Assembly (NCBI GenBank): GCA_009840355.1
Contig: VXNZ01000014.1
Location: 64,567 to 128,566 of the forward strand
Reading direction: 5' to 3'
Source of the DNA: Chloroflexota bacterium
GTDB taxonomy: Bacteria > Chloroflexota > Dehalococcoidia > Lucifugimonadales > JADFKI01
Length of the DNA: 64,000 bases
Part shown: piece after piece, positions 119-47,889 of the stretch
How positions within the stretch are numbered: position 1 is the first letter of the stretch
How the letters are laid out: each line of letters begins with the position of its first letter
Program-made: the position numbers and the translations under genes
The notes under the pieces: model-generated
What the model was told of the DNA's origin: nothing
Databases searched by the model: none
What the model saw: the letters and a program-made list of their open reading frames with translations, nothing else

Positions 119-1039
119 TTGGAGCGTTGTGTACAGTTGCAGAATAGCGTTGATGGATTCTTGAACTATATGACGGTAGAGCGAGGCGTTTCGCCGAACA
201 CACTTTCGGCCTACAGGAGCGACCTCAATCAACTAGTGCAGTACTTACAGACCAACCATTTGAACGGTAACGGCAGCGATTGGCAGGATGTGGACGAAGA
301 TATGATGTCCCAATATCTGCTTCATCTTCACGCGCTAGAGTATTCCGATACTACGCGCGCACGGAAGGTCGCATCGAGCCGGTCGTTGTTTGGCTTCTTG
401 CTGGACGAAGGCAAGGTAAGCCGCGACCCTACCGAAAATATCAGCTCGCCGCGCATCGGGCGTTCGCTGCCGGACACACTGAGCGTGGATGAAGTCGGCG
501 ACCTGCTCGCCTACGCGGCGTTGCAAGACTCGCCGGACGGTTTGCGCAACCGCGCGATGTTCGAGCTGATGTACGCTTGCGGACTGCGCGCATCCGAACT
601 AGTCTCACTTGATCTAGGCGACATTGACTTGGAGCAAGGCAGCGTGCGCGCCTTTGGAAAGGGCGGCAAAGACCGCGTGATCCCGGCACATGCCGATGCA
701 ATCGCGGTGATGCGACGCTATATCAATGAAGCGCGGCCTTCGTTTGTGAAGCGCGAATCAGAGCGATCACTGTTCCTAAACAGGCGCGGCAAGCGGCTCA
801 GCCGTCAGGGATTCTGGTTGATTCTAAAGGCGAGTGCCGCGCGCGCGGGCATCACCAAGGCGATTAAGCCGCACATGCTGCGCCACAGCTTCGCCACGCA
901 CCTGCTGCAAGGTGGCGCTCCACTGCGGCATGTGCAGGAGTTGCTGGGGCATTCCAGCATCACAACCACGCAGGTTTATACGCACCTGACCAGCGAGCAT
1001 GTGCGCACCGAATACGATAAGTCCCATCCGAGAGCGTGA
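119..1039 (+). CDS. xerD: Tyrosine site-specific recombinase, XerD-like
   Basis: 306-aa ORF. N-terminal core-binding motif FLNYMTVERGVSPNTLSAYRSDL. C-terminal catalytic box HMLRHSFATHLL...LLGHSSITTTQVYTHL. The TTG start at 119 is uncertain, and XerD versus XerC is judged from motif resemblance only. Confidence 0.85.
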   Translation: MERCVQLQNSVDGFLNYMTVERGVSPNTLSAYRSDLNQLVQYLQTNHLNGNGSDWQDVDEDMMSQYLLHLHALEYSDTTRARKVASSRSLFGFLLDEGKVSRDPTENISSPRIGRSLPDTLSVDEVGDLLAYAALQDSPDGLRNRAMFELMYACGLRASELVSLDLGDIDLEQGSVRAFGKGGKDRVIPAHADAIAVMRRYINEARPSFVKRESERSLFLNRRGKRLSRQGFWLILKASAARAGITKAIKPHMLRHSFATHLLQGGAPLRHVQELLGHSSITTTQVYTHLTSEHVRTEYDKSHPRA

Positions 1040-18160: not shown

Positions 18161-18703
18161 ATGGTAACTGCGGAAAGAGTCCAAGTTCTTGACCCGACCG
18201 TTCATGCGATACCGAACGACGCGGTCGTAGCGGAGCGGCCGGATACGCTTGAAGGCAAAGTAATCGGCTTGCTGGCGAACGGCAAGATTAACTCTGAGGA
18301 AATACTGGCGCTCACACAGGAAGTGCTGGCAGACCGTTATGAGTTCAAGTCGGTTGTGGCTCGGAACAAGATGAACGCCTCGCGCCCATGCCCGGATCAC
18401 ATCATCGACGAGCTTGTGGAGCAATGCGACGTGGTAATTACCTCGTCGGGCGATTGAGGATCTTGCTCATCGTGCAGTGTGCACGACGGAATTACCCTTG
18501 AAAAGCGTGGTGTCCCTACAGCGGTCATCTGCACCGAGCCGTTCATATCCAGCGGCAAGGCGATGTCAAACATCGGTGGCATACCGGACTACCCTTTCGT
18601 TGTGCTGCCGCATCCGCTGGGCAGCCTCGACGAAGAGCGGTTGCGCGAACGCGCGATACAGGCGGCGCCCGAAGTGCTGCGCATTTTGCTGGCGCGTGGA
18701 TAG
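18161..18703 (+). CDS. Selenoprotein candidate with a U-G-S-C motif (in-frame UGA at 18455..18457 decoded as Sec)
   Basis: ORFs 18161..18457 and 18479..18703 share a frame, and TGA at 18455..18457 is the only stop between them. Read-through gives ...VVITSSGD-U-GSCSSCSVHDGITLEKRGVP... (180 aa). AAGGAGG lies 7 nt before ATG 18161, while the second ORF has no independent start signal. A SECIS-like hairpin follows the TGA. tRNA-Sec and selA are in the same window. Confidence 0.75.
18466..18490 (+). promoter_or_regulatory. SECIS-like recoding hairpin
   Basis: U-CGUGCA-GUG-UGCACG-A (18470..18486), a 7-bp stem plus an outer C-G pair (18468/18488). The stem starts 13 nt after the UGA and the apical G/U-containing loop lies about 20 nt after it. 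Confidence 0.55.
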
Positions 18704-28968: not shown

Positions 28969-29898
28969 TTAACGCGCGCAAACCCAGCGAACGCTCTGCT
29001 TGGGCAAATCAAGCGCCTTTTCCGCAACGGTCGCCAGCATTCGCCATGTGGTCTCGTGGTGCGCGGTCGCTTCTACATCGCCGTAGTATGAATCGAGAAG
29101 CACGTAGGTGCAACCCAACTCTTGCAGCAGCTCAAGGTCGGCGCGAATCTGGTCGATTGTGCCTTCGCCGGTTAGACGATCGGCATTGTCCATCGGCGTG
29201 TCGGTAATGCGAAGGCGGATGCGCGGGCAGAGGTCCGGTACATCTTTGCCTTCCTCTTCTGCAAATCTTGTCAGCTTGGGTATGTCTATGTCTGCGAACT
29301 GGTCGTTCGAGATGCGTATCGGATGCCAAGCGTCCCCGTACCTCACTGCGCGACGAATCGCGGCGTCCGATGGACCACCGACCCATATCGGCGGATGCGG
29401 TTCTTGTATTGGCCGCGGAGTCGTGCGAATGTCTTCAAAACTGACGAACTCGCCTTCGAATGACGCTATATCTTGCGTCCACAGCGCTTTTATCGCTTGT
29501 AGATATTCGTCGGTCATCGCGCCGCGCCGGTTGAACGGCACGCCTAGCACATTGAACTCGCCTTCCGCCCAGCCAACTCCAACGCCGAATATGAGCCTGC
29601 CGCCGCTCAGTTGGTCGATGTTCGCACCCGCTTTCGCCGTCTCAAGCGGGTGGCGATACGGCACGATGATGACCGTGCTACCAATCTCCATTTCGGTGAT
29701 TCCGGCAAGCCAGCCCAGCGTGCTCAGCGGTTCGTAGAATGGCTCGGGGTATCGTCCATGCACATCGGGCGTTATGGCAATATGGTCGGATGTCATTACC
29801 AGGTGATAGCCTAGTGTCTCAGAGAGTTCGATCGTCTTGCGAAAGGCTTCAGGGTTTGCGGCAGGTCCAAAGTTGATGAGGTTCACGCCTACTTTCAT
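28969..29898 (-). CDS. Luciferase-like monooxygenase (LLM) class, probable F420-dependent oxidoreductase
   Basis: 309 aa: MKVGVNLINFGPAA...LGYHLVMTSDHIA...GGRLIFGVGVGWAEGEF. This is typical of the LLM/F420-dependent family. Confidence 0.8.
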   Translation of the reverse strand: MKVGVNLINFGPAANPEAFRKTIELSETLGYHLVMTSDHIAITPDVHGRYPEPFYEPLSTLGWLAGITEMEIGSTVIIVPYRHPLETAKAGANIDQLSGGRLIFGVGVGWAEGEFNVLGVPFNRRGAMTDEYLQAIKALWTQDIASFEGEFVSFEDIRTTPRPIQEPHPPIWVGGPSDAAIRRAVRYGDAWHPIRISNDQFADIDIPKLTRFAEEEGKDVPDLCPRIRLRITDTPMDNADRLTGEGTIDQIRADLELLQELGCTYVLLDSYYGDVEATAHHETTWRMLATVAEKALDLPKQSVRWVCAR

Positions 29899-30033
29899 GG
29901 TCTCCTCCGGTTCTACCTTGGAATGGGATGCGCCGCGCTAAAGCGTCAAGGCAGGAAGCCCGAACTCACCGGCGCAGCGAAAAAACAGACCGTGCAACAC
30001 AGAAATGTCGCATCATTCGATACGCAAGAAAAT

Positions 30034-30131
30034 TGGCGGGAGCGAGAGGGAGTCGAACCCACCGTCCCGACCGAAGGGCCGGGACCATCGGATTTGAAGT
30101 CCGTGGAACCCACCGGAGCACATCCGCTCCC
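30034..30131 (-). tRNA. selC: tRNA-Sec (anticodon UCA)
   Basis: 98 nt. The minus strand reads GGGAGCGG-AU-GUGCUC-CGGU-GGGUUC-CACGGA-CUUCAAA-UCCGAU-G-GUCCCGGCC-CUUC-GGUCGGGAC-G-GUGGG-UUCGACU-CCCUC-UCGCUCCC-G-CCA. It has an 8-bp acceptor stem, a 6-bp D stem with a 4-nt loop, a UCA anticodon (plus-strand TGA at 30095..30097), a 22-nt extra arm (9-bp stem), a 5-bp T stem and an encoded CCA. It is colinear, segment by segment, with E. coli tRNA-Sec as I recall it. Irregularities: two mismatches at the base of the anticodon stem, and one U-U in each of the D and T stems. Confidence 0.85.
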
Positions 30132-30161
30132 GCGTTGGTGGTGTTTCTGCTTTGGTGTGCC

Positions 30162-30189
30162 AGTATAACAGAAATGCCGAGCGTGTCAG
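30162..30189 (-). promoter_or_regulatory. Near-consensus extended -10 promoter for selC
   Basis: The minus strand reads CTGACA (30189..30184), a 16-nt spacer ending in TGT, then TATACT (30167..30162). The -10 box ends 31 nt upstream of the mature tRNA 5' end. Confidence 0.5.
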
Positions 30190-30196
30190 GCAGATG

Positions 30197-30805
30197 CTAC
30201 CGTCGGCGTCTGTATTCGATGAAGTCGGTGATGATGGCGTCCACCTCTTCCCACCACAGGCTGCCTAGAATCAGCCCTTTCGGCACATCGAACACCATCC
30301 AGCCTTGCACCTGAAACTCGCGGTCGAGTTCGATGGCACCCCACAGGAACGGCGTGTACAAGTCAGTCTCGGGGTCGGCAGTGTCCACGACGCGCGACGC
30401 CTCGAACGGGTCAACCGCGTTGATGCGCTCGCCGCGCCTGTCGCCGAGCTGCGCTGCGTCTTCGTCGATGAGCAAGGGCGTAACCAGGCTGGTGCGGTTG
30501 ACTAGCGTTATGTCGAGCAGCACCAGCTGACGATTGGACGCTCTAGGGCGTATGACGCGGTACTGTCCGGCACCGTCCGTGAACGCGACCTTATCCACGA
30601 TGAGCGGATGCGTCGTGTGCACTTCGAGGCTCCTGCCACGCGCGGATACCCTCTCCGGCTCATCGCTGCCACAGGACAGCAGTGCGAACGATGTCGCCAA
30701 TAGGAGGAACAGCGCAAGCGGCGACAGGCAGCCGGATATTCCCTTAAACTTACTCGCCTTGAACCAATGTGACTTTTGCGTCAGGTGCGAAATTTGTGCT
30801 TTCAA
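30197..30805 (-). CDS. Lipoprotein, DUF4352-like (tentative)
   Basis: 202 aa. Signal peptide with lipobox (LLLATSFALLS-C-GSD), then a beta-rich domain. The true start may be internal. Confidence 0.55.
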   Translation of the reverse strand: MKAQISHLTQKSHWFKASKFKGISGCLSPLALFLLLATSFALLSCGSDEPERVSARGRSLEVHTTHPLIVDKVAFTDGAGQYRVIRPRASNRQLVLLDITLVNRTSLVTPLLIDEDAAQLGDRRGERINAVDPFEASRVVDTADPETDLYTPFLWGAIELDREFQVQGWMVFDVPKGLILGSLWWEEVDAIITDFIEYRRRR

Positions 30806-30890: not shown

Positions 30891-32117
30891 TTATCTCGCA
30901 GCGGACAGCGACGGCATTGCCCGTAGCTTGGCTATCATATCCGGCAATACGGACAGCACATAGTCAATTTCGGCGTCTGTGTTTTCCTGTCCGATGGTAA
31001 ATCGCAAGCTGCTCTGTGCCATTTCCGCCGTCAGCCCGATGGCAAGCAACACATGCGACGGCTCCAACGATGCGGACGAACAAGCGCTTCCACTTGACGC
31101 GCAGATGCCCGCGAAGTCCAGCCCGAGCAGCACAGGCTCGCCTTCGACGCCTCTGAACGACAAATTCACATTGCTGGGCAGTCGTTGTGCCGGGTGACCG
31201 TTGAGCTTTACACCGTCAATCGTCTCGAATATACCCTGCGTCAGCCGTTCGCGTAGTCGTAGGCAGTGTGCCGAGCTCGCTTCCCGTTCCTGTGCGGCGA
31301 GACGCAGCGCCTCGCCGAATCCGACGATGCCGGGCACATTCTCGGTGCCGGAGCGCCGCTGTCGTTCTTGACCGCCGCCTGCGTTTTGCTCGTCGAATGG
31401 CGTACCGCGCCTGATGTACAGAAGACCCACGCCTTTGGGACCGTACATTTTATGCGCGGACAGGCTAAGCAATTCCACGCCCAATTCGCGGACATTGATG
31501 TCGAGGAATCCGGCGGCTTGCACGGCGTCCGTGTGCATCAGGATACTGCGTCCGCGCCGGCCCGCCTCTGCCTTCACATGCCGCGCGATCTCAGCAATTG
31601 GCTGCACAGTGCCTATCTCGTTGTTCGCCATCATCACACTGACCAAAATCGTCTGATCCGTGATTGCGTCGACGACATCGCGGGGGTCCACCATGCCGTA
31701 CTCATCGACCGGTAGGTATGTAACATCGAAGCCAAACTGCTCCAATTGGTAGCAGGTGTGCAGCACGGCGTGGTGTTCTATGGCGGTGGTGATGATATGG
31801 TTGCCAAGGCTCTTCAGCGCGAATGCGACGCCCTTGATCGCTGCGTTATCAGACTCGGTGCCGCCGCTTGTGAAGACAATCTCGCTCATTCGCGCGCCCA
31901 GAATGCGGGCGATTCGCTCGCGTGCGTCATCAACGGCTTTGCGCGCTTCCTGCCCGATGGTGTAAATGCTGGACGGATTCCCGAAGTCAGCCGCAAAGTA
32001 CGGCATCATCGCATCAAGCACTTCGGAACGCATGGGAGTGGTCGCCGCGTGGTCCAAGTATATGACCCTTTCTGCGATGGTCAATGTACTCCCCTTTCCA
32101 TCCGCATTATCTAACAA
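30891..32117 (-). CDS. Cysteine desulfurase, NifS/IscS-like (class V aminotransferase)
   Basis: 408 aa. [10 protein letters not shown] start region, PLP-lysine context [17 protein letters not shown], and active-site loop SSGSACSS. Confidence 0.88.
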
Positions 32118-46518: not shown

Positions 46519-47889
46519 ATGACTTCAGCGTACAGATTATTACCGAGCGTGGAACGGATATTGTCGGACGAGCGCATCTCGGCGTTAGTGGATAAGCACT
46601 CGCGGCTGGCGATAACGGAAATCGTCAGGCAGCGACTCGCGGGCGCGCGCGGCGAAATCGCCGCAGGTGGCGATGCACCGCAGCTGCACGAGATTATTGC
46701 CGATGTCGCGGCGCGCGCAGAAGTGATGGCGCTACCATGGCCCCGCCATGTGATAAACGCGACGGGCGTTGTATTGCACACGAACCTTGGCCGCGCGCCG
46801 CTGAGCGACGACGCGAAGAACGCGACGCTGCGGGCAGCGCAGGGTTACAGCGACCTCGAATTGGACTTGGACACCGGACGGCGCGGCTCTCGGCAGGCGC
46901 ACATCTCGAAATTGGTCGCGCGTGTAACGGGCGCAGAGGCGGCGCTAGTCGTAAACAACAACGCTTCCGCCGTGATGCTCGGTCTCGCGGCGATTGCAAA
47001 TGGCAAGGAAGTCATCGTGTCTCGTGGCGAAGCGGTTGAGATTGGCGGCGGCTTCCGCATTCCGGATGTGTTGCGTCAGAGCGGCGCGACTCTGGTCGAA
47101 GTCGGCACGACCAATCGCACATACGCCAGCGACTACGAAGCTGCCATCACGGAACGTACGGGCGCGCTGCTGGCAGTGCACGCCAGCAATTTCCGAGTGA
47201 TGGGATTTACGCACGCGCCGGAAATCCGAGATCTTGTTGAAATCAGCGCGCGGTGCGGCGTGCCGGTGCTGCACGACCTGGGCAGCGGATGCCTGCTAGA
47301 TTCCGCGCAGTTTGGCATGATGCACGAACCCATGCCGCAGGAAAGCGTCAACGCGGGCGTAGGTCTGTCGTTCTTTTCAGGAGACAAGCTGCTAGGCGGT
47401 CCGCAAGCAGGCATAATCGCCGGCACGAACAATCTGGTCGATTTGGTTGCGCGGCATCCGTTGGCTAGGGCAATGCGTATCGACAAGCTGAGCATGGCAG
47501 CACTCGCCGCGACGATTGAACACTACCTACGCGGTGAAGCACTGGACAAGATACCAATCTGGCGGATGATTGCAATGCCACCCGATGTGGTCAAGCGGCG
47601 CGTCATGTACTGGGCGGATAATATAGGCTCGCACGCATCCGCGGCATCATCAAGATCCACGATTGGCGGTGGAAGTCTGCCGGGCGAGACGCTTCCCACA
47701 TGGGTGCTTTCGATAGACTGCGATCGTGTTGAGGGCGGCGCGGAGGCTGTTGCAAAGCACCTGCGGGACGCAGATTCCCCCGTTCTAGGGCGCATCGAAG
47801 AGGGGCGAGTTCTGCTTGATGCCCGCACTGTGCTGCCTGAGGAAGAAAACGCGCTGCTGGCAACTGTACAGACTGCATTACAAGCCTAA
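46519..47889 (+). CDS. selA: L-seryl-tRNA(Sec) selenium transferase
   Basis: 456 aa. N-terminus LLPSVERIL...; NATGVVLHTNLGRAPLS; PLP-lysine motif FSGDKLLGGPQAGII. TATAAT at 46492..46497 and GGGAGA 8 nt before the ATG. Confidence 0.92.
   Translation: MTSAYRLLPSVERILSDERISALVDKHSRLAITEIVRQRLAGARGEIAAGGDAPQLHEIIADVAARAEVMALPWPRHVINATGVVLHTNLGRAPLSDDAKNATLRAAQGYSDLELDLDTGRRGSRQAHISKLVARVTGAEAALVVNNNASAVMLGLAAIANGKEVIVSRGEAVEIGGGFRIPDVLRQSGATLVEVGTTNRTYASDYEAAITERTGALLAVHASNFRVMGFTHAPEIRDLVEISARCGVPVLHDLGSGCLLDSAQFGMMHEPMPQESVNAGVGLSFFSGDKLLGGPQAGIIAGTNNLVDLVARHPLARAMRIDKLSMAALAATIEHYLRGEALDKIPIWRMIAMPPDVVKRRVMYWADNIGSHASAASSRSTIGGGSLPGETLPTWVLSIDCDRVEGGAEAVAKHLRDADSPVLGRIEEGRVLLDARTVLPEEENALLATVQTALQA

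Follow-up and report, generated by a model that had tools for sequence, protein, structure and literature searches.

Bacterial tRNA-Sec displays an 8/5 fold with a 13-bp acceptor/T branch, a 6-bp D stem that carries a 4-nt loop, a long variable arm and the discriminator base G73, and the CCA end is encoded in 93% of the bacterial genes (PMC5330540). Allo-tRNAs and (8/4) tRNA-Sec have been described in Chloroflexi and Actinobacteria (Mukai et al., PMC5389517). These have a 12-bp acceptor branch, either 8/4 with a bulge or 9/3, and the anticodons of allo-tRNAs are often other than UCA; an allo-tRNA with a UAA anticodon was found to put serine at UUA codons in E. coli (PMC5389517). The selC gene of E. 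coli K-12 (b3658) has a length of 95 nt and scores 83.8 bits with the Rfam tRNA-Sec model RF01852.

The window, i.e. the whole 64-kb stretch of DNA that was analyzed, is from an uncultured Dehalococcoidia bacterium of the phylum Chloroflexota. An earlier note, made from the letters of the sequence, had proposed a tRNA-Sec gene on the minus strand at positions 30034..30131 (Table 1). ARAGORN calls one tRNA in the entire window, tRNA-SeC(tca), and its ends are at exactly these coordinates. The RF01852 model matches the same segment over its full length (model positions 1–91) with 66.4 bits (gathering score 47, E = 2.4e-11), and it is the only Rfam family above its gathering score in the window. 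The locus is also the only one above the RF01852 threshold in the 3.28-Mb genome (57 contigs, 97% complete), where the seven best matches below the threshold belong to ordinary tRNAs for Leu, Ser, Arg and Trp. The earlier note had named two outcomes that would speak against its reading, a tRNA-Sec score below threshold and a call as tRNA-Ser or tRNA-Leu with a non-UCA anticodon; neither was found. We are highly confident that the segment is the single functional selC of this organism. The gene is of an ordinary, already known kind that standard tools detect.

Table 1. Features of the selC region and associated loci (positions are those of the window unless another locus is named).
Feature	Position	Strand	Basis
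UGSC-family predicted selenoprotein; Sec (TGA) is codon 99 at 18455..18457	18161..18703	+	translation with TGA=U
Weak terminator-like hairpin (30012..29993), with a T6 run (29985..29980) 7 nt beyond it	29980..30012	-	scan
selC, tRNA-Sec, anticodon UCA, 98 nt, 8/5 fold, G73, encoded CCA	30034..30131	-	ARAGORN, Rfam RF01852, covariation
30 nt between -10 hexamer and mature 5′ end	30132..30161	-	read from sequence
Sigma-70-type promoter-like site	30162..30189	-	consensus scan, 10/12 hexamer matches + TG
Predicted lipoprotein, 202 aa	30197..30805	-	conserved lipobox; 65 nt from stop codon to selC
NifS-type cysteine desulfurase, upstream of lipoprotein gene	30891..32117	-	TIGR03402, 531.8 bits (cutoff 530.75)
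selA, L-seryl-tRNA(Sec) selenium transferase	46519..47889	+	TIGR00474; Pfam SelA, Se-cys_synth_N
selD	G000:C2:129417, about 0.8–0.85 kb past the 3′ end of the window; locus L020 1366..2535		translation with TGA=U

Read on the minus strand from position 30131, the 5′ part of selC is GGGAGCGG-AU-GUGCUC-CGGU-GGGUUC-C-ACGGA-CUUCAAA-UCCGA-UG. The 3′ part, which runs to position 30034, is (GUCCCGGCC-CUUC-GGUCGGGAC)-G-GUGGG-UUCGACU-CCCUC-UCGCUCCC-G-CCA, with the extra arm in parentheses. The acceptor stem (GGGAGCGG/UCGCUCCC) has 8 bp with a G-U as the last pair, and the dinucleotide AU links it to the D stem, which has 6 bp (GUGCUC/GGGUUC), one of them a U-U at layer 11:24, and the 4-nt loop CGGU. 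The anticodon loop of 7 nt, CUUCAAA, gives the anticodon UCA. The extra arm is a 22-nt hairpin in which a 9-bp stem, GUCCCGGCC/GGUCGGGAC, carries the 4-nt loop CUUC. The T stem has five layers (GUGGG/CCCUC), again with one U-U, and the loop UUCGACU. The 3′ end is formed by UCGCUCCC followed by G-CCA at 30037..30034, thus the discriminator is G73 and the CCA is encoded. The acceptor/T branch has 13 layers (8 + 5), 12 of which are standard pairs, and its two strands are of equal length. All the stems and loops listed in the earlier note, together with the UCA anticodon, the extra arm, G73 and the encoded CCA, are therefore present in the sequence.

Three layers in the stems of selC are non-standard, U11-U24, A27-A43 and U50-U64. 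The single U-U mismatches that had been noted in the D and T stems are the first and last of these. Two mismatches had also been placed at the base of the anticodon stem, of which the A-A is real and is at 27:43; the supposed C-U consists of the unpaired positions 26 and 44, which flank a five-layer stem. The minimum free energy fold of the single selC sequence (-49.3 kcal/mol, z = -2.3) is not the cloverleaf. The MFE fold of one tRNA is uninformative, and support for the cloverleaf comes instead from the covariance model and the observed covariation. Apart from the gene itself, the window contains no second copy of the selC 3′ end, the mark of an integration site. Thus nothing indicates that an island has been inserted at this gene.

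Comparison with the actual K-12 selC sequence shows that the D loop CGGU, the anticodon loop CUUCAAA and the T loop UUCGACU are identical in the two genes, as the earlier note had stated. The window gene also has in common with E. coli and bacterial selC the UCA anticodon, the 8-bp acceptor stem, the five-layer T stem, the 6-bp D stem, the long extra arm, G73 and CCA. The overall identity with E. coli selC is 57 of 98 aligned columns, and a blastn search with the window tRNA against E. coli genomes gave no match. The statement in the earlier note that every segment has the same length as in E. coli is slightly inaccurate. From the anticodon stem to the T stem there are 25 nt in the window gene and 22 nt in E. 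coli, and the three additional nucleotides of the window gene (98 vs 95 nt) are all in the extra-arm region. Unlike E. coli selC, the genes of the window lineage display U50-U64, which is order-wide, A27-A43, which is genus-wide, and U11-U24. The window selC is also located apart from the genes of the Sec machinery, 16 kb from selA and on a different contig from selB.

The selC gene is conserved among related genomes. A tRNA-Sec above the model threshold is found in all 21 of the same-genus genomes, in 24 of 24 genomes of the family and in 37 of the 41 relatives that were searched, and the anticodon is UCA in each of the 30 orthologues retrieved. When the tRNA sequence was used in a degenerate exact-match scan, 16 public records were found, all of which are metagenome-assembled genomes labeled as Dehalococcoidia or as Chloroflexi/Chloroflexota. 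Pairs were counted on 19 distinct orthologue sequences to which the canonical bacterial 8/5 cloverleaf, with 33 pairs, was applied. Standard pairs occupy 93.4% of the cells, but only 43–57% when the 3′ partners are moved by one to three columns. In 18 of the 33 pairs there are changes on both sides, and none of 500 shuffles attained any of the observed covariation measures. Double changes are most frequent in the extra arm, where they affect 8 of the 9 pairs; the D stem is next, with 4 of 6 pairs and 95.6% of the cells paired. In the acceptor stem 98% of the cells are paired and three of the eight pairs covary.

The non-standard layers are themselves shared. U50-U64 is present in 18 of the 19 distinct sequences and is order-wide. 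A27-A43 is common to all same-genus sequences retrieved, with G-U in that position in most other families, and U11-U24 is also found in several sister genomes, with G-U in others. The three layers are conserved features of the lineage and not signs of decay. Related to possible function, part of the acceptor/T branch of E. coli tRNA-Sec reportedly blocks the binding of EF-Tu, a finding attributed to Rudinger et al. in 1996, and layer 50:64 is presumably within the region that serves as this antideterminant. The order-wide U50-U64 layer might conceivably be the EF-Tu antideterminant of this lineage.

The genome also encodes the selenocysteine machinery, and selA, selB and selD all score above the curated NCBIfam cutoffs. 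The SelA sequence matches TIGR00474 with 531 bits (cutoff 267.9) and includes the N-terminal domain. The selB gene, on another contig, scores 341.9 bits (cutoff 242.25). The selD gene scores 389.5 bits (cutoff 125) and contains one in-frame TGA. When this codon is translated as U the sequence is ELASCAG-U-ASKFSP, which puts the TGA at the catalytic Cys/Sec site. Because the catalytic residue of SelD is encoded by UGA, the organism needs UGA-to-Sec decoding in order to make any selenophosphate. Four Sec-related loci, the UGSC gene (18161), selC (30034), selA (46519) and selD, are found within about 47 kb of one contig.

Predicted selenoprotein genes were sought in the whole genome by a scan for coding frames that are bridged by a single TGA, scored by codon usage. 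The scan gave 20 candidates, which were checked against Pfam with U written as C. In 16 of the 20 a family domain spans the TGA, which is at a redox or catalytic motif; together with SelD, there are about 17 predicted selenoprotein genes in the genome. The families include DUF3179 (two genes, W-U-x-L-C), DsbA/Thioredoxin_4 (three, U-x-x-C), UGSC (three), AhpC/TSA (four), OsmC (two), a rhodanese (Y-U-QGGIR, with Sec in the active-site loop), a thioredoxin-NHL protein (C-U-x-x-C) and an AhpD-like CMD protein. One of the UGSC genes is in the window (Table 1). Its translation matches PF24696 (UGSC) with 194.5 bits across the TGA, and a hairpin is found 16 nt after the UGA. Examples of loci elsewhere in the genome (C denotes the contig) are C25:73972-75291(-), C20:16616-17746(+), C53:4987-5832(+), C51:80468-81016(+), C24:3963-4442(+) and C35:6299-6853(+). 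One TGA-bridged candidate, C7:54315-55982, has a ChsH2-like domain and a thiolase-like domain that are separate, one on either side of the TGA, and for this reason it is taken to be two adjacent genes in the same frame.

The best local hairpins that start 10–28 nt after the UGA codons of the predicted genes have a mean of -9.0 kcal/mol; for 384 control positions, taken from within these genes, the mean is -7.0 kcal/mol. The SECIS-like hairpins are thus stronger than the controls (one-sided Mann-Whitney p = 0.003); a coarser test for SECIS elements based on the MFE of 60 nt was not significant (p = 0.11). The arrangement of UGA and hairpin fits the standard SelB/SECIS mechanism, with SelB predicted to bind the hairpins. 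The window gene thus has the UCA anticodon, the 8/5 fold, the D stem, the variable arm, G73 with CCA and the model score expected of tRNA-Sec. The selA, selB and Sec-containing selD genes and the many UGA client genes complete the context, which argues for the tRNA-Sec interpretation, and selC, judged by its sequence, is almost certainly functional.

Two other readings of the gene were considered. One is that selC is a decaying, non-functional relic of a tRNA-Sec, in which the mismatches stem from lost constraint. The three non-standard layers would agree with such a history, as would an RF01852 score that is 17 bits under that of E. coli selC (66.4 vs 83.8). However, the very same layers are conserved in relatives (A27-A43 across the genus, U50-U64 in 18 of 19 sequences, U11-U24 in several sisters), all the loops, the anticodon, G73 and CCA are intact, and the genome has retained selA, selB and a selD that requires Sec. 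A relic is thus very improbable. Just as improbable is the other reading, in which the gene is an allo-tRNA or opal suppressor with serine identity that reads UGA as serine. Allo-tRNAs were discovered in tRNA-Sec searches and occur in Chloroflexi (PMC5389517), and the window selC resembles the tRNAs of Mukai et al. (PMC5389517) in phylum, in its long extra arm and long D stem and in the search models that find it. One relative has a Sec-like tRNA with a UAA anticodon. The 12-bp branch of the 8/4 or 9/3 type (PMC5389517) is, however, not found in the window selC, which unlike allo-tRNAs and (8/4) tRNA-Sec has 13 layers (8 + 5), strands of equal length and the anticodon UCA. The 6-bp D stem with its 4-nt loop marks the molecule as a tRNA-Sec for SelA, and a SelA with the N-terminal domain is encoded in the genome. 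The UGA sites coincide with catalytic Cys/Sec residues, and a serine in their place would make the proteins inactive.

The relative with the UAA anticodon (G010) is of the same genus as the window organism. It has a second RF01852 match of 62.8 bits at G010:C9:291782-291865, equivalent to positions 183..266 (+) of locus L071. The anticodon loop is CUUAAAA, which gives a UAA anticodon that reads Leu codons. In this sequence the acceptor stem has 8 bp, the D stem 6 bp and the T stem apparently 4 bp; the discriminator is G73, and the CCA is not encoded. ARAGORN makes no call here; it does call a tRNA-Ala(tgc) 18 nt downstream. The UAA type was found in one of 22 genomes of the genus (G010) and is absent from the genome of the window. 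The G010 gene resembles an allo-tRNA and by analogy could insert serine at Leu codons.

The selC gene is preceded on the same strand by a gene for a predicted lipoprotein, and this in turn by a gene for a NifS-type cysteine desulfurase (Table 1). The order NifS-type desulfurase, lipoprotein, selC on one strand is found at every locus of the genus that was examined and in at least four other families. A tblastn comparison shows the gene order upstream of selC to be conserved, with only the intergenic DNA diverged. In about 28 genomes, which belong to at least five families, the lipoprotein gene is next to selC. The lipobox Cys45 is kept in the orthologues, and the mature domain of 158 residues is strongly conserved. 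The 234 homologues form a family confined to Chloroflexota, and none has a functional name. Searches with the lipoprotein gave no Pfam match even at E ≤ 10, no NCBIfam match and no PDB profile match. The AlphaFold2 model is mostly beta and of low confidence (mean pLDDT 53.6, pTM 0.49).

The lipoprotein was found in 33 of the 41 relatives searched, all 33 of which have selC. The relatives that lack it are four with selC and all four without selC. The genomes are kin, and because of this the co-occurrence is only a lead. It is conceivable, but doubtful, that the three genes form a selenium module. In such a module the NifS-like protein would provide SelD with selenium, as a donor or as a selenocysteine lyase, the lipoprotein would have a role in selenium acquisition and selC would be co-expressed with the other two genes.

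The lipoprotein gene ends with a stop codon at 30199..30197, and the 65 nt that separate this codon from the tRNA contain a promoter-like site. The site consists of a -35 hexamer, CTGACA (30189..30184), a 16-nt spacer, the TG of an extended -10 element (30170..30169) and the -10 hexamer TATACT (30167..30162). The earlier note had described this CTGACA-N16-TGtTATACT arrangement, and it is indeed present as the sole sigma-70-like site in 29700..30500, where shuffled sequences average 0.2 such sites. The complete promoter is identical in the closest relative. In sequence terms the site has a TGnTATAAT-like extended -10 element that is correctly placed and conserved.

The earlier note had concluded that selC has its own promoter. 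The site and its conservation in seven genomes support that conclusion, which is probably correct, but do not amount to proof. The alternative is read-through, in which case selC would be genuine and without a promoter of its own. This reading holds that selC is transcribed from the lipoprotein and NifS-like genes, and that the CTGACA-N16-TGtTATACT sequence is incidental or auxiliary. The one-strand gene order, conserved in the genus and in other families, would suit such an arrangement. A scan detected no terminator-like site between the lipoprotein stop codon and selC, the promoter motif is absent from about two thirds of the genus, and the spacer between the upstream gene and selC is only about 33 nt in some relatives; for these reasons read-through has to be considered. 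Against it, the site agrees with the consensus at ten of the twelve hexamer positions and has the TG in addition, and there is no other such site in 800 bp. Each of 13 fetched loci (7 of 22 genomes of the genus) has a single copy of the extended -10 sequence TTTCTGWTAWAMT, a 13-mer, always on the strand of the tRNA and 20–33 nt upstream of selC, whereas the rest of the spacer has diverged. The estimated number of chance matches to TTTCTGWTAWAMT is about 0.05 in the approximately 190 kb searched. Transcription by read-through without an own promoter thus appears somewhat unlikely. The two modes are not mutually exclusive, and an own promoter is the preferred reading.

Downstream of selC a scan detected a hairpin and a separate T run (Table 1), and the fold of 29970..30033 has an energy of -17.8 kcal/mol (z = -2.1). 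The evidence for a terminator at this location is weak because several nucleotides separate the stem from the T run.

The expression of selC may be pictured by steps taken from the established bacterial Sec system, from which we infer transcription start, processing, charging and decoding. The site at 30189..30162, with its extended -10 element, would probably serve as the promoter. RNase P would then cut off a leader that measures about 24 nt, and the CCA is already encoded. By analogy, SerRS would charge the tRNA with serine by way of the long extra arm and G73, and the SelA encoded at 46519..47889 would turn the serine into selenocysteine with selenophosphate from SelD. The Sec-tRNA-Sec would then be carried by SelB to the in-frame UGA codons, each with a hairpin after it, of about 17 redox-protein genes.

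The selC gene itself is routine, and the practical value of the finding is in annotation. Ordinary gene callers will split or truncate the approximately 17 selenoprotein genes at the in-frame TGA, both in this genome and in its relatives. Since selC is present together with selA, selB and selD, these genes should be retranslated with Sec for TGA. The predicted selenoproteins point to a heavy reliance of this uncultured Dehalococcoidia lineage on selenium for its thiol-redox proteins.
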